NCBI GenBank assembly: GCA_964372415.1 | Contig: CAYJQH010000004.1 | Location: 27,387 to 84,206, forward strand | DNA: 56,820 nt | Source of the DNA: an uncultured Gammaproteobacteria bacterium | GTDB lineage: Bacteria > Patescibacteriota > Patescibacteriia > UBA9934 | Reading direction: 5' to 3' | In this document: positions 15,769-23,844 of the stretch, piece by piece | Layout: each line of letters begins with the position of its first letter | Position numbering within the stretch: the stretch's first letter is position 1 | The notes under the pieces: generated by a model | Seen by the model: the letters and a program-made list of their open reading frames with translations, nothing else | Databases searched by the model: none | What the model was told of the DNA's origin: nothing | Translations under genes and position numbers: made by a program

Positions 15769-15779
15769 GAGACAAAACA

Positions 15780-15803
15780 CCCGTCGCTTAGCTAAGCGAC
15801 GGG
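15780..15803. terminator. Perfect 24-bp palindrome at the end of the RelA-like gene
   Basis: CCCGTCGCTTAG|CTAAGCGACGGG immediately after stop at 15804, followed by TGTTTT on the minus strand. Confidence 0.55.
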
Positions 15804-16991
15804 CTACGACTTTTGCATATTACCGTTTTCGGCTTTCCAATCGATTCCGTACCACTCGTAGGCGAACCATCGCTCGAGGATACAATCGCGAATGACGCGA
15901 TGACGGTAACCCTTGTGACCGAGCTCGTCAGTTGCGTGCTCGGCGTTCAGGTGGTCGACGAGGGCCATAATCTGGTGCTCAACTGGTGCCGCCACAATGT
16001 AGGGCCGCCGCTCGTCGTCATGACGCAGATCGTGGACTTCGCCGACGATCTTTTCTACCCGGTAGTCAGGGTGTGACTTGGGATTCGGGGGTCCCGAATC
16101 CGTCCTTTCATGAAGCGGCGGTCGCCACAGACGACGTTTAGCGATGATTACAAAACGTAATACGTCGCTCCAATCTGGCGGACGCAGGATTCCGTTCTCT
16201 TCAACCCCCACAATTACGTGCTTTAGGCCTCGCCTGTCCGTAAGTGATCCACCACGCTCAAGCTTAATGACTCCAGACAATCGATCTTTAGGCCGACTGT
16301 TGGTGTAGATGTAGTACTTGATTGAGCTATCAACGACAGCTCGACACACATATTTGATGACCCTAACCGGCTGATCGAAAGCCGGAATCTCCAGTCTGGC
16401 GTGAGCAACTCTGACTGGAAAGTCGCTGTGGACGCGCGAATGGCGACCCGAGTCGAGCGCAAAATGCACGAAGAGCGCCGCCCCCTGACCGGTCTCAAAC
16501 AGCTCCTTACCTGCCCGGATGTTGATTTGCGTCAGCTGCGCCGTAACGTCCTCGTACGGATCGGCGGCCGCGATACACATTATTTGGGTGGCGATCGTGA
16601 GTTTACGTTCGATCTCAAACTGAGCGAACAAGCTTGCGTCCTCATACATATCCATGAGGTGCCATGGATCATTGCAGGAGCCGATCTCGTCGATGGGTTC
16701 AATCTCCTTCGGGTGACCAGAGTGATCGGCCACCACCCACTCGATGCCAGCCTGAGCGTCTTCGAGGTTACGCATGAAGCGTTCGTAAAAACCAGCTACG
16801 CCAAGTCGAGCAAGACGGTCACCGGCGCCATCGCTTTGCCAATTCTTCCAGGCAATAAATGCCCGATCGCGACGTTCCACATAGCGTTGCTTGCGGAACA
16901 ATTCAAGAAGCTTGGGAATGGTTGGGTAAACCTCGTTGAAGGTTCTGATGTACGGGGGTTTGTGAGTGAAGAAGATGGGGATCTCAGCCAC
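15804..16991 (-). CDS. Divergent RelA/SpoT synthetase-domain (small alarmone synthetase-like) protein with unknown N-terminal domain
   Basis: RPKDRLSGVIK matches RxKxxxSxxxK; TDRRGLK matches DxxGxR; HPDYRV; VEHQIM resembles EIQIRT; GHKGY resembles HxxY. Confidence 0.65.
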   Translation of the reverse strand: MAEIPIFFTHKPPYIRTFNEVYPTIPKLLELFRKQRYVERRDRAFIAWKNWQSDGAGDRLARLGVAGFYERFMRNLEDAQAGIEWVVADHSGHPKEIEPIDEIGSCNDPWHLMDMYEDASLFAQFEIERKLTIATQIMCIAAADPYEDVTAQLTQINIRAGKELFETGQGAALFVHFALDSGRHSRVHSDFPVRVAHARLEIPAFDQPVRVIKYVCRAVVDSSIKYYIYTNSRPKDRLSGVIKLERGGSLTDRRGLKHVIVGVEENGILRPPDWSDVLRFVIIAKRRLWRPPLHERTDSGPPNPKSHPDYRVEKIVGEVHDLRHDDERRPYIVAAPVEHQIMALVDHLNAEHATDELGHKGYRHRVIRDCILERWFAYEWYGIDWKAENGNMQKS

Positions 16992-17049
16992 TGTCCCTCC
17001 CTAAGAAAGAACGCGAGCACAGGCTAACAAAATTTAATAAAAAAACAAT

Positions 17050-17075
17050 CCCCGACGGTGGACGTCGGGGTTTTT
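17050..17075 (-). terminator. Hairpin terminator after ndk
   Basis: CCCCGACG-gtgga-CGTCGGGG flanked by A and T tracts. Confidence 0.7.
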
Positions 17076-17078
17076 AGC

Positions 17079-17684
17079 TTATTCAAGAAACCATTCTGGA
17101 TCGTACTGCACTCGATCGTTGACGTGTTCGTACTTGTACAGCTCATTGTCAGAGAACCAAACTTTAATTTCGTGCTCTGCCTCTTGAGGAGCGCCAGAAG
17201 CGTGAATGAGGTTGCGAAGTGGTCGATTCTGCGCGTTGGCTAAAGCATAGGTATCGAGCGAGAAGTCGCCACGAATCGTGCCCGGAGCTGATGAGGCTGG
17301 TTCGGTGGCACCAACGAGTTTGCGAACGGCACTCACTGCCATCTCGCCTTCGAGTACAAGGGCGATGATAGGGGCTGACTTAAGGAAGGTGACGAGACCG
17401 TTCTTGATCTCAGTGCCGTAGGCAACGTGATCAGGGTACGGAAACGGTTGACCTTCGGCTTCGTACTTGGCTTTAGCTTTGGTAAAAACACCTTTCATCC
17501 ATTCCTCTGTCAGGGCGTAGTGCTTATCGACGTCGTCGGGTGAGGCATGAACCATCTTGATGGCCAAAAGCTTGAGACCGGCTTTTTCAAAACGGGTGAT
17601 AATTTCACCAATAACACCGCGTTGCACGGCATCGGGCTTCAAGAGAACGAGGGTTTTCTGAAGGTTGAGCGCGGCATCTGCCAT
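17079..17684 (-). CDS. ndk: Nucleoside diphosphate kinase (long form with internal insertion)
   Basis: LLKPDAVQRG, GATEP...PGTIRGDF, RNLIHAS catalytic His motif. Confidence 0.95.
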   Translation of the reverse strand: MADAALNLQKTLVLLKPDAVQRGVIGEIITRFEKAGLKLLAIKMVHASPDDVDKHYALTEEWMKGVFTKAKAKYEAEGQPFPYPDHVAYGTEIKNGLVTFLKSAPIIALVLEGEMAVSAVRKLVGATEPASSAPGTIRGDFSLDTYALANAQNRPLRNLIHASGAPQEAEHEIKVWFSDNELYKYEHVNDRVQYDPEWFLE

Positions 17685-17782
17685 ACATCGGGGGTCAATT
17701 TCTTGGCCCAAGAATAGCTGTGTTGACGAAAACCGTCAATTTTGTTAATTATCCATGTCTCGATCTTTCTAATGGAGGCACG

Positions 17783-18607
17783 ATGCGAGTCTTCATCCAT
17801 AGCGCTCTCGTGGCCGGACAAGTTCCGGACGAGAACGACTTCCGAGATGTTCTCGGGTATCTGCGAAGCGAACTGCCGAAAGTCCCGCACCTGCATGGCG
17901 CCGTCATTTTTGGCTCAGCCCTGAGTGGCAAAACCAACCTGACGAGCGACATCGATGTCTTCATCGCCCTCGATGTGCCGCGTGCCTGCTTGCTTACTGG
18001 AGCGATGGATAAACTGAGCGAACTGTCGAACACGGCGCATGATGTTTACGTGCCGGTAAGCTGGGTGCTCCACACCAAAGAGGAGCTCACCTCCGGCCAA
18101 CACACCCTGCGGCACGGTCTCATCGATCATCTGAGGTGGGCCGCCGAAAACGGCGGTGCGGTCAGCCAAAACCCCTGCCCTTTAGTGCTTCATCGCGGTT
18201 CGCGCCAAAAAGAAGCTCGAAACTACGTCATTCATGCACTTGAAAAGGCGCGTCGGGCCAGGCTTACCTGGAACGAGCTCAATGAACAGTCTCGCCACCG
18301 AGCACGAGCCAAGCTGCTCGACAAACCGCTTCATGTGGCCCGCCGGGTGCTCGAACTGCATAATCGTGAGGCCGTGAGCTGGTCAAGAAGGCAGGTCACC
18401 GCAGAACTTGGGCGTCCGACGCTCTCTGAGATCAGCGGCATCAGACACGCCTACGTAAGCGCCGTGCTGCCGGAACAGCTGCGTGAGCCAAACGCTCATA
18501 CCTATCACGATTTTCTAGAGGCTGCCGACAAGGTGCTGTTCCAGATTGTGCCGAAGTTCTACAACGACATGTTGGAAAATGAACTTCTGAACTCTCCCCG
18601 CAACTAA
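17783..18607 (+). CDS. Pol-beta superfamily (minimal) nucleotidyltransferase domain protein with helical C-terminal domain
   Basis: GAVIFGSALSGKTNLTSDIDVFI fits GS-x10-DxD; GGAGG RBS before ATG 17783. Confidence 0.7.
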   Translation: MRVFIHSALVAGQVPDENDFRDVLGYLRSELPKVPHLHGAVIFGSALSGKTNLTSDIDVFIALDVPRACLLTGAMDKLSELSNTAHDVYVPVSWVLHTKEELTSGQHTLRHGLIDHLRWAAENGGAVSQNPCPLVLHRGSRQKEARNYVIHALEKARRARLTWNELNEQSRHRARAKLLDKPLHVARRVLELHNREAVSWSRRQVTAELGRPTLSEISGIRHAYVSAVLPEQLREPNAHTYHDFLEAADKVLFQIVPKFYNDMLENELLNSPRN

Positions 18608-18620
18608 GCGGGGTTTCTTT

Positions 18621-20969
18621 TTAAAAATCTAAAACCTTCACCCTCGGCTCTTCATCGATTATTTTTATTCGTATAGTGCCGTCCAGATCTGTTCTGTAAA
18701 TCTGGACTTTACTCATTTGCAGTCTGTCTATAACAAACGGGTCGGGGTGTCCGTAATTATTGTTTTCACCAACCGAAATAATGGCTATCTTTGGCTTCAC
18801 TGTGTCAAGAAACTCCGGTCCAGTGGAAGTTTCGCTTCCATGATGACCGACTTTGAGCACTCCAACCTCCCCTAGCCCCTCTTTCTGCAAGGAAGGAGCG
18901 TACTTTAATATCGGCTGCTCTTCCTGAACACCAGCATCGCCCATGAGCAACATTTTCCCCTCATTGGCTTCTAGAAGAAAAATCAGCGAGCCGTCGTTTG
19001 GATCTTCAAGCATCGCGCCGTCAAATGACTCCTTGGGCCACAGCGTCGTCAAAGTGACTCCCCCGCCAAGCTCAAGTACTTCCCCAGCTTTGATAACGCG
19101 ACGCTTGGATTCTGCCAGGCGAGAATATTCAGCAAATTCCGATGTGTCGTAGCCCTGATCAGCATCAATAACTTCAGATACCTGATAGCGCTCGAGAAGT
19201 GGCACAAGACCCGCCACATGGTCGGCATGCGGATGGGTATTAACCACAATGTCCACATTTCGATCCCACCACGGAAGAACTGCTGAAAGCTTTTCGAGCA
19301 CCGTAAAATCGGGTCCGCCGTCAATGAGTACATCTTTCTCTGGTCCGTCGATAAAAATGGCGTCGCCCTGACCAACATCGAATACCCAAACTGTAGTTCC
19401 AAGGTTCCCTCCTGTGATCCAGGCATAGCGCATTAAAAGACCAAAGGTCACAGCGGCGAAAAGCGTGGGCACCAACCAGCGTTTAGGAGCTGGCGAAATG
19501 GCCAACCCCCGCCTAGCCACCCTCACATTGTGGACGGGGAACAAGAGCAATATAGAAACGACAATAAGAGCCACACCTGCGACGAGTGTGGGGATATTAC
19601 TGAGCGAACGGATGATTTCGAGGATTGCCGACAAAAAAACCCAGGCTGGAAAGGCCAGCATGGCGCCGAGTCCTTGGTTAAGGGCACCGACGACTGTCGC
19701 TAAAGCTCCAAAGCCCATAGCGTATGGCACAAACGGCAAAACCAGGAGGTTGGCAATCGGGCCTATAGCAGCAAAGCGGCCAAAGTTAAGAAGCACAATC
19801 GGTAACGTCGCAATGGTCGCGGCAAGGGTGGTCGATAAAGCTTCGCGCAGGCCGAAAGCTTGCGGTATCCACCACAATCGTTCGCTCATTGGCCGTGACC
19901 ACCACAAAAGTCCAGCCGTCGAGAGCACCGACAACTGAAAACCGATGTCGTCGCGCAACAATCGAGGCTCAACGAGAAGCATAACAGCCACCGTGGTCAA
20001 CAAAATGTTTCGTGGCGATGTTTTGCGGCCGGTTTGCTTGGCCGTAAGGACAAGCGCCGCCATAATGCCGGCTCGAGTTACCGCTGCTTGAGCCCCAGCT
20101 ATGATGACAAAGGCAATAATGCCTAAAAGTAAAAGTGGAAAAGCCTCTTGGCGTCTAAAACCTAAGTGAAGCGCGAGCACAAAGAGCACACTTACGACAA
20201 TCGCCACGTTGGTCCCTGAAGCAGCGACGATATGCGAGGTTCCGGTTGAAATAAATCTTTCCTGCCATTCGTCGGAAAACGTATTGTCGCCAAGGAGAAG
20301 ACCAACAAGGAGCGTCGCCTGAGGCTCACCAAACGTACGCTCGATCACGGTCACTAGGCTGTTATGAAGATGGGCTAATTTGATTCTAAAACCCGTCGTG
20401 GCATACGGGTCGAGGATTATCGGTGCGTCATAAATTAGACACTGGCTATAAATGTCTTTAAGCGCTAAATATTTATCGTAAGCAAAGCCGTCGAATGGCT
20501 CGGGGGCTTCAAAAGCACAAGTAAGGGCAATGCGAGATCCAACAGGTATCTCAGGATAGCGTGGAACCGTCGCTAAGAGTTGGTCGTCGAAACTTTCGCC
20601 GTTTGCGGTGATCTCGTTTAGCGTGAGCCGTTGTCGATCGTCCAACTCACGTTTAACAACTATGGCCTCAACAGGGTGATGACCGCCGTTTAAAAGAGCG
20701 ATCGATTGCTCGCCCGGACCAACTGCGTTGTAACGAAGGCAACCGAGACCAAGACCGAGGGTCAGAAGCATGACATATACCGCTCGCCTTTCAAGAACCC
20801 CACCCGAGCCCTCTCCTATAGCGCGGAGAGGGAGCTGTTTAAGGAGAAACAGCGCGCAGGCAATAACCACGGTGACGATTGCCCAATGAAATTGCGAGGA
20901 TGCTAAAGCGATACCGGCAATGATGCCGGTCATGGCACTCGCCACGGCAAGTCCAGGAAGAAACCGCAC
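18621..20969 (-). CDS. comEC: ComEC/Rec2 DNA uptake channel with C-terminal metallo-beta-lactamase domain
   Basis: GTSHIVAASGTN, SVLSTAGL, DVGQGDA, THPHADHVAG, LKVGHHGS, YGHP. Confidence 0.95.
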   Translation of the reverse strand: MRFLPGLAVASAMTGIIAGIALASSQFHWAIVTVVIACALFLLKQLPLRAIGEGSGGVLERRAVYVMLLTLGLGLGCLRYNAVGPGEQSIALLNGGHHPVEAIVVKRELDDRQRLTLNEITANGESFDDQLLATVPRYPEIPVGSRIALTCAFEAPEPFDGFAYDKYLALKDIYSQCLIYDAPIILDPYATTGFRIKLAHLHNSLVTVIERTFGEPQATLLVGLLLGDNTFSDEWQERFISTGTSHIVAASGTNVAIVVSVLFVLALHLGFRRQEAFPLLLLGIIAFVIIAGAQAAVTRAGIMAALVLTAKQTGRKTSPRNILLTTVAVMLLVEPRLLRDDIGFQLSVLSTAGLLWWSRPMSERLWWIPQAFGLREALSTTLAATIATLPIVLLNFGRFAAIGPIANLLVLPFVPYAMGFGALATVVGALNQGLGAMLAFPAWVFLSAILEIIRSLSNIPTLVAGVALIVVSILLLFPVHNVRVARRGLAISPAPKRWLVPTLFAAVTFGLLMRYAWITGGNLGTTVWVFDVGQGDAIFIDGPEKDVLIDGGPDFTVLEKLSAVLPWWDRNVDIVVNTHPHADHVAGLVPLLERYQVSEVIDADQGYDTSEFAEYSRLAESKRRVIKAGEVLELGGGVTLTTLWPKESFDGAMLEDPNDGSLIFLLEANEGKMLLMGDAGVQEEQPILKYAPSLQKEGLGEVGVLKVGHHGSETSTGPEFLDTVKPKIAIISVGENNNYGHPDPFVIDRLQMSKVQIYRTDLDGTIRIKIIDEEPRVKVLDF
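18865..18898 (+). repeat. C-tail/hairpin element copy, in-frame in comEC (PSLQKEGLGEV)
   Basis: ACCTCCCCTAGCCCCTCTTT-CTGC-AAGGAAGGAG. Confidence 0.7.
19505..19542 (+). repeat. Degenerate C-tail/hairpin element copy, in-frame in the comEC linker
   Basis: ACCCCCGCCTAGCCACCCTCACATTGTGGACGGGGAAC, 28/38 identical (counted by hand) to the copy at 30214. Confidence 0.55.
20797..20834 (+). repeat. C-tail/hairpin element copy, in-frame in comEC (LPLRAIGEGSGGV)
   Basis: ACCCCACCCGAG-CCCTCTCC-tatagcgc-GGAGAGGG-AG. Confidence 0.7.
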
Positions 20970-20970
20970 A

Positions 20971-23844
20971 TTAAACCACGAAATTTACCAGTTTACCTTT
21001 TACTACAATCTCTTTTTTGGCTGGAGTGGTCAGATATTTTGCTACGTTGGTATCTTTCTTGGCTACTGCGACAAGTTCTGTGTCAGAAATATCGGCCGAA
21101 ACAACCACCTTAGCCCGAACTTTTCCATTCACCTGAATCACTATGGTCTGTTCATTATCAACAAGGAACTTTTTGTCAGCCGTGGGCCAGCTCTGTTCTT
21201 CGAGGAAACCCTCACCACCAAGTTTTTGCCACAGCTCATTACCGATATGTGGCGCAAAGGCGACGAGGACAGCCAAAAACTGTCCGAGGCTCTTCTTGGT
21301 AATGGTCGAGTCGCCAACGGCATTCACAAACTTCATGAGTTCAGACACCGCGGTGTTGAAACGGAAAGCGTCGATGTCTTCCGAAACTTTAGCAATAGTT
21401 TTATGAAGCGCCTTGGTAACCTCATGAGTCTCATTCTTCCCCACTCGCTCAGCCAGGCGGGTGACCTTCTCAAGGAAGCGACGAACACCAATTAGGCCGT
21501 TTGTTGACCACGGCACCGGCTCTTCGAAAGGTCCCATGAATAACAAATAGGTTCGCAAGGCATCGGCCCCGAATTCTTTGACGATATCGTCCGGGTTCAC
21601 TACGTTTCCCTTAGACTTACTCATCTTTGTCCCATCCTCAGCTAAAATTAGGCCGTGACTATGGCGGCGGGCATAGGGTTCGCTCGTTGGCACAAAACCT
21701 TGGTCGAACAAAAATTTGTTCCAGAAACGTGAGTACAAGAGGTGGAGCGTAGTGTGTTCCATGCCGCCGTTGTATAGGTCGACTGGCATCCAGTATTTGA
21801 GTTTCTTTTTGTCGGCGAATGCTTTAGCGTTACTCGAGTCGACGTAACGGAGGAAATACCAGCTTGAACCAGCCCAGTTGGGCATGGTGTCAGTCTCACG
21901 TGTCGCTTGACCATCACACTTAGGACAGGTGGTGTTCACCCACTCCTTAACATTGGCGAGCGGTGATTCACCGGTCTCGGTTGGTTCATACTTTTCGATC
22001 TTAGGAAGCTCAATTGGAAGATCTTTTTCGGGAACAGCAACCCAACCATCTTTAGCACAATGGACGAGCGGTATTGGCTCACCCCAATAACGCTGGCGAG
22101 AAAAAACCCAGTCACGTAGTTTATAGGTGACTTTCTTTTGTCCGATTTTTTTTGTCTCAAGCCAGGCAATAACCTTCTTTTTTGCTTCTGCCGTCGTTAG
22201 TCCGTCGAGGAAATCTGAATTTGTCGCCAAACCCTCACCGCTATAGCACTTCCCTTTCACGAGTTTATCGAACACATATTCGTGCAGTAACTCAATAACT
22301 TTACCGTCCGCATCCTTCTCGCTCAGCCATTCCACGTTAAACTTATTCTTTTCATTCTCTTCAAGTTTTTGATCAACTCGTTCGTCATTTACGAGTTCAA
22401 AGTACAAACCTATAGCATCAATGATCCGAGCCTTGTTCTTGGAGTAGGCAAAGTAATGATGGTGAATGGTTTCTGTTTTAGAAATAAACTTAAGATTGTT
22501 GTATCCCGTTTCTTCGGCAATTTCACGTTTGGCACATTCAATCGGATCTTCCCCTGCTTCAAGCCCGCCGCCCACGAATAAATTTCCACCGAGCTCTTTG
22601 CCCCAGTTAAGAGACAAGAACTTTTTGGTCTTCGGGTTGCGGACAACGGCCACAATGCTCTGACGATGTTCTTCGTTCGGTCGCGGCTCACCGGTGATTG
22701 GTTCGATGACCGTTTTTACCGGCAGATCAAAAGCTTGAGCAAAGGCATAATCGCGCTCGTCATGGGCTGGTACAGCCATGATGGCTCCGGTGCCATAGCC
22801 CGGAAGCACGTAGTCAGCTACCCAAATAGGGATTTCTTCACCGGTCGCTGGATTGATCGCCTTCACACCCTTAAGTTCGACGCCGGTTTTCTGCTTGTCC
22901 TCATTAGTTCGCTCAATATCAGTTTTCTTTTTTACACCGTCAACGTATTTTTTCACCTCTTTCTTATTCTCGAGCACATCGTGGTCCGAGTCGGTCGCCA
23001 ACGTAACCCAAAGATGCTCGGGGGCGAGAACGAGGTAAGTCGCACCAAAAATTGTGTCAGGTCGAGTAGTAAACACGGTCAGTTTTGCCTTCTCACCATT
23101 TGGTCCACGGTTCTTGTTTGCCTCCGGCTTAAAGCTAAAGTTAAGCCCAAAATCAATCTCGGCACCCTCACTCTTGCCAATCCAATCTTCTTGTTGCTTT
23201 TTGATTTTCGGAGGATAATCGACCGTTTTAAGGTCCTCGAGCAAACGATCGGCGTACTTGGTAATAGCAATCATCCATTGCTCTTTTTCTCTTTTTTCGA
23301 TTGGGGTACCGCAGCGCTCGCAGCAACCGCCAACCACCTCTTCGTTGGCGAGTCCCACTTTGTCCTTAGGACACCAGTTAACCATTGCCTTAGCTTTGTA
23401 GGCTAAACCAGCCTTAAAAAACAGAAGAAACATCCATTGCGTCCATTTGTAATATTCAGGATCTGTAGTTGAAAATTCGCGCGACCAATCAAAACTAAAA
23501 CCGAGAGACTTTAACTGTCGGCGGAAAGTGTCGATGTTTTGCTTAGTCGAAACCGAGGGATGGATGCCAGTTTTGATGGCGAAATTCTCGGCGGGTAAAC
23601 CGAAGGCGTCCCAGCCCATCGGGAATAACACGTTCTCACCCTGCATGCGATGCTTGCGAGCAATTACGTCAAGCGCGGTATAACTGCGTGGGTGTCCTAC
23701 ATGAAGACCGGTACCTGACGGGTATGGAAATTCAACGAGCAGGTAGGTTTTCTTTTGCTTGCTATTGTCTTTAGCCGCAAATATCTGGGACGCTTCCCAA
23801 TTGCCTTGCCATTTCTTTTCAAGCGACGCGTGGTCGTAGGACAT
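20971..23844 (-). CDS. leuS: Leucine--tRNA ligase with inserted Nudix domain
   Basis: FPYPSG.GLHVGH (HIGH), MGWDAFGLPAEN, FTTRPDT, KMSKS. Confidence 0.98.
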   Translation of the reverse strand: MSYDHASLEKKWQGNWEASQIFAAKDNSKQKKTYLLVEFPYPSGTGLHVGHPRSYTALDVIARKHRMQGENVLFPMGWDAFGLPAENFAIKTGIHPSVSTKQNIDTFRRQLKSLGFSFDWSREFSTTDPEYYKWTQWMFLLFFKAGLAYKAKAMVNWCPKDKVGLANEEVVGGCCERCGTPIEKREKEQWMIAITKYADRLLEDLKTVDYPPKIKKQQEDWIGKSEGAEIDFGLNFSFKPEANKNRGPNGEKAKLTVFTTRPDTIFGATYLVLAPEHLWVTLATDSDHDVLENKKEVKKYVDGVKKKTDIERTNEDKQKTGVELKGVKAINPATGEEIPIWVADYVLPGYGTGAIMAVPAHDERDYAFAQAFDLPVKTVIEPITGEPRPNEEHRQSIVAVVRNPKTKKFLSLNWGKELGGNLFVGGGLEAGEDPIECAKREIAEETGYNNLKFISKTETIHHHYFAYSKNKARIIDAIGLYFELVNDERVDQKLEENEKNKFNVEWLSEKDADGKVIELLHEYVFDKLVKGKCYSGEGLATNSDFLDGLTTAEAKKKVIAWLETKKIGQKKVTYKLRDWVFSRQRYWGEPIPLVHCAKDGWVAVPEKDLPIELPKIEKYEPTETGESPLANVKEWVNTTCPKCDGQATRETDTMPNWAGSSWYFLRYVDSSNAKAFADKKKLKYWMPVDLYNGGMEHTTLHLLYSRFWNKFLFDQGFVPTSEPYARRHSHGLILAEDGTKMSKSKGNVVNPDDIVKEFGADALRTYLLFMGPFEEPVPWSTNGLIGVRRFLEKVTRLAERVGKNETHEVTKALHKTIAKVSEDIDAFRFNTAVSELMKFVNAVGDSTITKKSLGQFLAVLVAFAPHIGNELWQKLGGEGFLEEQSWPTADKKFLVDNEQTIVIQVNGKVRAKVVVSADISDTELVAVAKKDTNVAKYLTTPAKKEIVVKGKLVNFVV

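Follow-up and report, generated by a model that had tools for sequence, protein, structure and literature searches.

The gene described here lies in a 56,820-nucleotide stretch of patescibacterial DNA from contig CAYJQH010000004.1 (hereafter the window, meaning the whole stretch that was analysed). In its C-terminal half the encoded protein of 395 amino acids (aa) most probably carries a genuine, extremely divergent synthetase (SYNTH) domain of the RelA/SpoT homologue (RSH) type, a reading to which we give a probability of about 0.8.

15804–16991, minus strand: whole RSH-like gene, encoding 395 aa, with a GTG start codon (16991) and a TAG stop codon (15806–15804)

We propose that the protein is a two-domain enzyme, the C-terminal domain of which (approximately aa 210–377) would be a very divergent homologue of the RelA/SpoT SYNTH domain. 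Taking all analyses together, it is probably an active ATP-dependent pyrophosphokinase with a non-canonical mode of acceptor recognition, serving a housekeeping function and not that of a toxin. An initial annotation, made from the letters of the DNA alone, had described a highly divergent RelA/SpoT-like synthetase whose substrate is possibly altered. As far as a synthetase-like domain of this type with changes at the acceptor site is concerned, this description was supported by a fold search, by an in-register profile–profile alignment and by the conservation of the catalytic positions.

Synthetase motifs in the C-terminal domain

In the SYNTH domain, five Syn motifs coordinate Mg2+, ATP and GTP or GDP (PMC12226406). 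The five corresponding strings listed in the initial annotation were all recovered from the open reading frame (ORF) 15804–16991. They follow one another in RSH order and their internal spacing is identical to that of RSH proteins: RPKDRLSGVIK (aa 233–243), TDRRGLK (251–257), NPKSHPDYRVEK (303–314), VEHQIM (337–342) and GHKGY (358–362). The ordered chain was formulated as R.K...S...K / D..G.[KR] / [YF]...[HK] / E.Q / H..Y[KR] with loose spacers. None of 200,000 shuffled versions of the protein contained it (Syn1 and Syn2 alone: 3 of 200,000), nor did any other open frame of at least 100 aa in the window, which has 121 such frames; thus, the motif chain is not a product of chance. The core and its motifs are located as follows.

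15861–16298, minus strand: RSH SYNTH-like catalytic core, aa 232–377 (Foldseek and collinear hhalign)
16263–16295, minus strand: Syn1-like RPKDRLSGVIK (R233-x-K235-x3-S239-x3-K243), predicted ATP phosphate-binding motif (conservation and hhalign)
16221–16238, minus strand: Syn2-like DRRGLK (D252-x2-G255-x-K257), predicted Mg2+-coordinating Asp (conservation and hhalign)
16041–16064, minus strand: Syn3-like YRVEKIVG (Y310-x3-K314-x2-G317), predicted stacking aromatic residue retained (conservation and hhalign)
15966–15980, minus strand: Syn4-like EHQIM (E338-x-Q340), predicted catalytic Glu retained (conservation)
15903–15917, minus strand: Syn5-like HKGYR (H359-x2-Y362-[RK]) (conservation)

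Conservation was counted over 52 divergent members of the wide family, which are 17–47% identical to the query. Just three positions never vary, namely K235, the lysine of RxK, D252, the predicted Mg-binding Asp, and E338, the Glu of ExQ. The remaining motif residues likewise coincide with conserved columns of the family. Within Syn1, R233 is kept in 47 members, S239 in 32 and K243 in 48, the other four having Arg at this last position. Syn2 shows G255 in 45/52 and an extra arginine, R254, in 50/52. An aromatic residue stands at the Syn3 position 310 in all 52 by our count (Y in 41, F in 10 and H in one), accompanied by D312 in 38 members (Ala in the narrow clade) and G317 in 48. In Syn4, a Gln follows E338 at +1 or +2 (339 or 340) in 44/52, and Syn5 has H359 in 50/52, Y362 in 38/52 and Arg or Lys at 363 in 42/52. 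For FaRel2, the Mg-binding Asp D90 and the acceptor-stacking Tyr Y128 were reported to be highly conserved and essential (doi 10.1101/2021.04.30.441581).

Predicted fold and profile–profile alignment

An AlphaFold2 model built from a 13-sequence alignment was confident and reached a mean predicted local distance difference test score (pLDDT) of 86.7 and a predicted template modelling score (pTM) of 0.86. When this model was searched against the PDB with Foldseek, small alarmone synthetases (SAS) made up 14 of the top 16 matches, with approximately 180 aligned columns and probabilities of 0.66–0.97. These matches come from four proteins: S. aureus RelP, B. subtilis YwaC and RelQ, and S. pneumoniae 2BE3. 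Palm domains of DNA polymerase beta (Pol beta) and terminal deoxynucleotidyltransferase (TdT) ranked after them. Furthermore, in the viral library BFVD the sole match above a probability of 0.5 was a phage RelA/SpoT protein (probability 0.51, 21% identity, root mean square deviation (rmsd) 5.8 Å over 125 columns). The predicted order of secondary structure elements, beta-alpha(Syn1)-beta(Syn2)-alpha-beta-loop(Syn3)-beta-beta(Syn4)-alpha-alpha(Syn5), is the same as in the SAS core.

Additionally, the C-terminal profile of the family was aligned with an RSH profile of 13 sequences, made up of RelA and SpoT of E. coli, a set of eight RSH domains found on viral contigs and three SAS sequences taken from PDB alignments. 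This larger profile was needed, as hhalign against a two-sequence RelA/SpoT profile gave nothing useful. The alignment was collinear (P 0.0025–0.004) and was obtained without supplying any motif information. It placed R233, K235, S239 and K243 on GRVKPVASILEK of RelQ (R-x-K-x3-S-x3-K, identical spacing), D252 and G255 on the D-x2-G of RelQ D-I-A-G-L-R, Y310 on the Tyr and K314 on the His of GYxSxH, and E338 and Q340 on ExQ.

Searches for sequence similarity to RSH proteins

The initial annotation had proposed a structural comparison together with a comparison to RelA_SpoT. The former returned SAS as the top matches, as described above; the latter yielded no match to PF04607. This and several further observations weigh against the assignment to the RSH family. 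At E ≤ 10 the protein matched nothing in Pfam, PF04607 (RelA_SpoT) included, and nothing in NCBIfam. Among the 52 members of the wide family, none matched PF04607 or any other informative Pfam family at E ≤ 1. Neither the single protein nor any of three family profiles retrieved an RSH protein from the PDB sequences; the matches were chance ones to low-complexity or hairpin sequences. A home-made RSH hidden Markov model (HMM), run with its filters off, scored the family at no more than 6 bits, the small local matches falling mostly over the Syn1–Syn2 stretch. SAS-sized relatives were sought transitively with the C-terminal profile among 5.8 billion proteins; none emerged at E ≤ 0.1, at a sensitivity limited by the word pre-filter of this search. 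The positive evidence is of modest strength in numerical terms as well: the Foldseek matches in the PDB have E-values of 0.03–0.3, TM-scores of 0.35–0.43 and an rmsd above 11 Å, and the hhalign alignment is weak, with a probability below 10%.

On the level of the motifs, position 257 (Syn2 +5) is basic in just 36/52 members. The SxH of Syn3, the guanosine-recognizing element whose counterpart in (p)ppApp synthetases is GxN (PMC12226406), is not kept; the family has [D/A]xK instead, and His never occurs at +4. The Arg of the Syn4 consensus ExQxRT is lost, position 342 being Thr, Met or Leu and never Arg. Finally, the protein sequence was located in DNA metagenomes only (at least four samples from three studies). 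Because the family does not match the RelA_SpoT HMM and departs from RSH in two motif sub-features, we do not file it as a member of RelA_SpoT.

The altered residues had in part been noticed before. The replacement of the Syn3 His by Lys was confirmed and extends to the family, with K314 in 44/52. The change from QxR to QxM holds for the query protein and does not describe the family, in which 12 of the 13 close relatives carry Thr.

Conserved gene neighbourhood

The gene order comEC–ndk–RSH-like gene–murA–M50 peptidase–rpsL–rpsG–fusA is conserved in contigs whose RSH-like proteins are 47%, 43%, 37%, 32% and 26% identical to that of the window. The immediate flanks are ndk and murA, and the same block was seen in six further contigs; the adjacency to ndk pointed out in the initial annotation is therefore real and conserved across related contigs. 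A member from Uhrbacteria lies outside the block, among hypothetical genes. Among the relatives, the RSH-like protein is 37–49% identical, NDK 37–42% and ComEC 42–57%, compared with 66–75% for the M50 peptidase, 74–85% for MurA, 74–76% for S7 and 89–91% for S12. The gene thus keeps pace with ndk and comEC in its divergence, whereas murA and the genes of the M50 peptidase, S7 and S12 change far more slowly. No small partner gene was seen beside it and no mobile-element neighbours were seen, and PADLOC and PHROG scans of four divergent members gave no match. Overall, we take the gene to be a chromosomal, vertically inherited unit with transcription signals of its own that probably does not belong to a toxin–antitoxin module.

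Proposed reaction and alternative explanations

By analogy with the RSH enzymes RelQ, RelP and FaRel2, ATP would be bound by the basic Syn1 residues R233, K235 and K243, Mg2+ would be held by D252 and E338, and the base of the acceptor would stack onto Y310. The 3′-OH of the acceptor would then attack the beta-phosphate of ATP, so that pyrophosphate is transferred and AMP released. Since the SxH of Syn3 and the Arg of Syn4 are replaced, the acceptor is probably bound differently and may not be GDP or GTP. Our leading guess is an adenine nucleotide or another nucleotide bearing a 3′-OH. In toxSAS and (p)ppApp synthetases, altered Syn2–4 signatures accompany an altered acceptor (PMC12226406; doi 10.1101/2021.04.30.441581).

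Unlikely, in our view, is that the protein is instead the housekeeping (p)ppGpp synthetase of the lineage, that is, an SAS still using GDP or GTP with the N-terminal domain as its regulator. It would fit such an enzyme that RelP and RelQ outrank toxSAS structures such as 7ZTB in the fold search, that the stacking aromatic residue and every donor-side residue are retained, and that the gene occupies a conserved housekeeping context by ndk and the str operon. The guanosine-recognizing Syn3 motif, however, has become [D/A]xK (PMC12226406) and the Syn4 Arg is gone. How much these exchanges mean is itself uncertain, as swaps of Syn motifs in Apk2 failed to convert its specificity (PMC12226406); motifs alone are hence poor predictors of the acceptor in either direction.

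A more far-reaching proposal is similarly doubtful. According to it, the protein would be an alarmone synthetase specific to the Candidate Phyla Radiation (CPR), with a product other than (p)ppGpp or another 3′-OH acceptor and with a novel helical sensor domain, and it would act as the main or only stringent-type enzyme where canonical RelA/SpoT is absent. The RSH HMM detected no canonical RSH either in the window or among seven related loci, which represent a small part of each genome. Annotated genes for (p)ppGpp synthesis have been reported from some CPR bacteria (Saccharibacteria; PMC6031116).

The initial annotation had also considered a toxSAS-like enzyme. The protein would then be a growth-arresting toxin, for instance a tRNA 3′-CCA pyrophosphokinase, whose N-terminal domain acts as a fused cis antitoxin or sensor, as in CapRel-type proteins, the whole system serving phage defence. 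An RSH-like core joined to an extra domain in a single polypeptide would suit this idea, as would the basic C-terminal half (pI 8.8) and an evolution faster than that of murA, M50, rpsL and rpsG (37–49% versus 66–91% identity). The ndk and comEC genes of the same block evolve equally fast, however, and the housekeeping synteny remains constant down to 26% identity. The recognized signature of toxSAS, a conserved bicistronic operon that pairs the toxin gene with that of an antitoxin, often in overlap (PMC7229694), is missing here, as are defence-library matches and mobile-element neighbours. On these grounds we regard a toxin as improbable and abandon that part of the annotation.

Equally improbable is a merely superficial likeness to RSH, in which the protein would be another nucleotidyltransferase of the Pol beta superfamily (transferring a nucleoside monophosphate in place of pyrophosphate) or would bind nucleotides and have no RSH chemistry. 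Palm domains of Pol beta and TdT do follow SAS in the fold search, no HMM-level link to RSH exists and the TM-scores are below 0.5, but SAS structures rank above all other nucleotidyltransferases, the RxKxxxSxxxK helix motif with its exact spacing is an RSH feature, the invariant K235, D252 and E338 argue for catalysis, and the signature hG[GS]-x9-13-DxD is absent, a single Asp (D252) being followed by R253-R254 and preceded by only two residues by a G-G-S (247–249) that is unconserved in the wide family.

The N-terminal domain and the linker

The remainder of the protein, up to the catalytic core, had been described as an unknown N-terminal domain of approximately 230 aa. The extra region exists, but it divides into a helical domain of 168 aa and, after it, approximately 60 aa of beta-rich linker.

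16488–16991, minus strand: N-terminal all-helical domain, aa 1–168, lineage-specific (predicted secondary structure)
16665–16691, minus strand: DEIGSCNDP motif, aa 101–109 (narrow-clade conservation)
16299–16487, minus strand: beta-rich linker, aa 169–231, with a strand leading into Syn1 (strands 171–179, 194–196, 209–221 and 224–231)

In the narrow clade of 13 members, D101–C106 and D108 of the DEIGSCNDP motif are invariant, and N107 and P109 are conserved to at least 90%. Only D108 (31/52) and P109 (44/52) of this motif remain conserved in the wide family, in which D/E126 (47/52), R129 (42/52) and D144 (48/52) also stand out within the domain. The linker has C216 in 49/52 and R217 in 48/52. 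Folded alone, the N-terminal domain reached a moderate pLDDT of 73.8. A Foldseek search of the PDB with it returned generic helical bundles only (E > 2) and no HD hydrolase, and a profile search for the domain in other architectures retrieved one fragment only.

The full-length model has a high pTM, which points to the helical N-terminal domain and the catalytic domain forming one unit. The helical domain is confidently packed on the catalytic domain in the model. It may serve as a regulatory or substrate-selecting module; we infer for it a role either in regulation or as a part of the acceptor site.

Putative transcription and translation signals

Around the gene, the following candidate signals were found.

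17050–17070, no strand assigned: bidirectional terminator-like hairpin between ndk and the RSH-like gene, reads as a terminator on both strands
17021–17029, minus strand: extended −10-like box TGT-TAGCCT, 5′ of the gene (read directly from the sequence, consensus level only)
16995–17001, minus strand: Shine–Dalgarno-like GGGAGGG, 3 nt ahead of the GTG (read directly from the sequence)
15779–15804, minus strand: terminator-like hairpin over the stop codon, 11-bp stem with seven GC pairs and a T-rich tail

The putative promoter-like box is localized right past the ndk terminator-like hairpin. With this box, the Shine–Dalgarno-like sequence and hairpins on both sides, the gene looks monocistronic. 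Both flanking hairpins are GC-rich, and the downstream one overlaps the TAG stop codon.

Size and distribution of the family

The protein had been called an orphan, which does not hold. A word-indexed search detected 13 full-length homologues of 390–408 aa with 36–49% identity, all of them unannotated and with one named source, 'Patescibacteria group bacterium'. An exhaustive phmmer scan over 1.84 billion cluster representatives (clusters at 50% identity) extended the family to 60 representatives at E ≤ 1e-3, 41 of them at E ≤ 1e-10, mostly 380–470 aa in length. Named members of this set are Patescibacteria, Candidatus Uhrbacteria or simply 'bacterium'. Close copies occur in 3 of approximately 185,000 species-representative genomes. 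The family is thus rare and, as far as sequence records carry names, limited to a subset of the CPR (Patescibacteria).

Two of these three, the metagenome-assembled genome records titled 'uncultured Gammaproteobacteria', L029 (CAZXUX010000006.1) and L030 (CAYSXU010000005.1), both contain the RSH-like gene, and the MurA neighbour in L029 is 80% identical to the MurA of the window and stands in the same position. The label 'Gammaproteobacteria' on these two records is probably wrong.

In one protein (P0048; L032, 29–1120), a truncated N-terminus of a GlmS-type class-II glutamine amidotransferase (MCGIAGI..., approximately 105 aa) is fused directly to the RSH-like C-terminal half. This fusion was considered as a functional hint and not used, as it is a single protein on a 1.3-kb contig and probably a chimeric assembly.

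Neighbouring genes

The NDK of the window (17079–17711, minus strand) has 210 aa compared with 155–170 aa in relatives, and its Pfam match falls into two stretches. It is only 37–42% identical to the NDK of relatives whose MurA is 74–85% identical, pointing either to a speed of divergence that is unusual for ndk or to an insertion.

Between ndk and comEC lies a 295-aa ORF (17720–18607, plus strand) with weak matches to Pol beta/MntA-like nucleotidyltransferases: PF18765 at 7e-5, PF01909 at 2e-4, NCBIfam MntA at 2e-4 (below cutoff), and PADLOC PDC-S09/PDC-M05A at approximately 1e-3 to 1e-4. This slot is variable: L001 has no gene there, L004 an unannotated one of 272 aa, and two JGI contigs have one for a 900–970-aa FG-GAP protein. 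ComEC is encoded by a single gene in the window (18621–20969, minus strand, 782 aa) and in L004 (742 aa); L001 (3172–5386) and the two JGI contigs instead have separate genes for a Competence part of approximately 420–460 aa and a metallo-beta-lactamase part of approximately 276–287 aa.

The leucyl-tRNA synthetase (LeuRS) carries a NUDIX domain in the JGI contigs of two relatives (958 and 981 aa) and lacks it in L001 (789 aa); the leuS region of the window is 20971–23844. Pyrophosphorylated nucleotides are, in principle, compounds that a Nudix enzyme might break down.

Significance

RSH enzymes have been catalogued with HMMs, and 30 SAS subfamilies were distinguished in this way (PMC7229694). 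Neither these HMMs nor Pfam, NCBIfam, PADLOC or PHROGs recognize the family described here. Should it prove active, the charted sequence space of alarmone-type pyrophosphokinases would be incomplete, and the enzyme would offer a testable handle on growth-rate and stress signalling in the ultra-small, host-dependent Patescibacteria. To our knowledge, almost nothing has been learned about regulation in these organisms. The retained donor-side residues together with the remodelled acceptor site would amount to a natural experiment on acceptor specificity in the SYNTH fold; what sets this specificity has so far not been answered by motif swapping (PMC12226406). As a proposal drawn from sequence and model, the family should be of interest to specialists for RSH enzymes and for the CPR.

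Comparison with known systems

Classical Pol beta-type nucleotidyltransferases (MNT/KNTase-like) are defined by hG[GS]-x9-13-Dh[DE]h, which the RSH-like protein does not display, and neither PF01909 nor PF18765 matched the 395-aa protein.

Long RSH proteins (Rel, RelA and SpoT) likewise possess an alpha-helical N-terminal domain followed by a SYNTH-like domain. In contrast to theirs, the N-terminal domain found here shows no similarity to the HD hydrolase, either in Pfam or in the fold search, and structures of the Rel N-terminal domain were not among the top 50 structural matches of the model. TGS/ACT-type C-terminal domains are missing as well (no Pfam match), the protein ending approximately 20 residues past the catalytic core.

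The toxSAS FaRel2, PhRel2 and CapRel and the (p)ppApp synthetases Tas1 and Apk2 demonstrate that the acceptor of a SYNTH domain can be the tRNA 3′-CCA end or an adenine nucleotide and not GDP or GTP. Equivalents of their Asp and of their stacking Tyr are shared with the RSH-like family. Unlike this family, toxSAS, Tas1 and Apk2 are detectable members of the RSH proteins, and they occur together with antitoxin or immunity genes or as polymorphic-toxin domains themselves (PMC7229694, PMC12226406), whereas the RSH-like gene has neither and lies in a conserved housekeeping block. Syn3 also differs, being GxN in Apk2 and [D/A]xK in the RSH-like family.

The closest comparison is with the SAS RelQ and RelP (SAS1/SAS2), which are the best structural matches (PDB 5DEC/5DED, 6EWZ/6EX0, 6FGJ/6FGK and 2BE3). 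The RSH-like protein differs from them in having no detectable HMM similarity, in the exchange of the Syn3 SxH for [D/A]xK and the loss of the Syn4 Arg, in a shorter loop between Syn1 and Syn2, and in the additional 168-aa helical domain with its beta-rich linker. Both are chromosomally encoded, neither in a toxin–antitoxin operon. RelQ and RelP have the same order of secondary structure elements as the RSH-like core, and their Syn1, the Asp-x2-Gly of Syn2, the aromatic residue of Syn3, the Glu and Gln of Syn4 and the HxxY[KR] of Syn5 stand in register with it.

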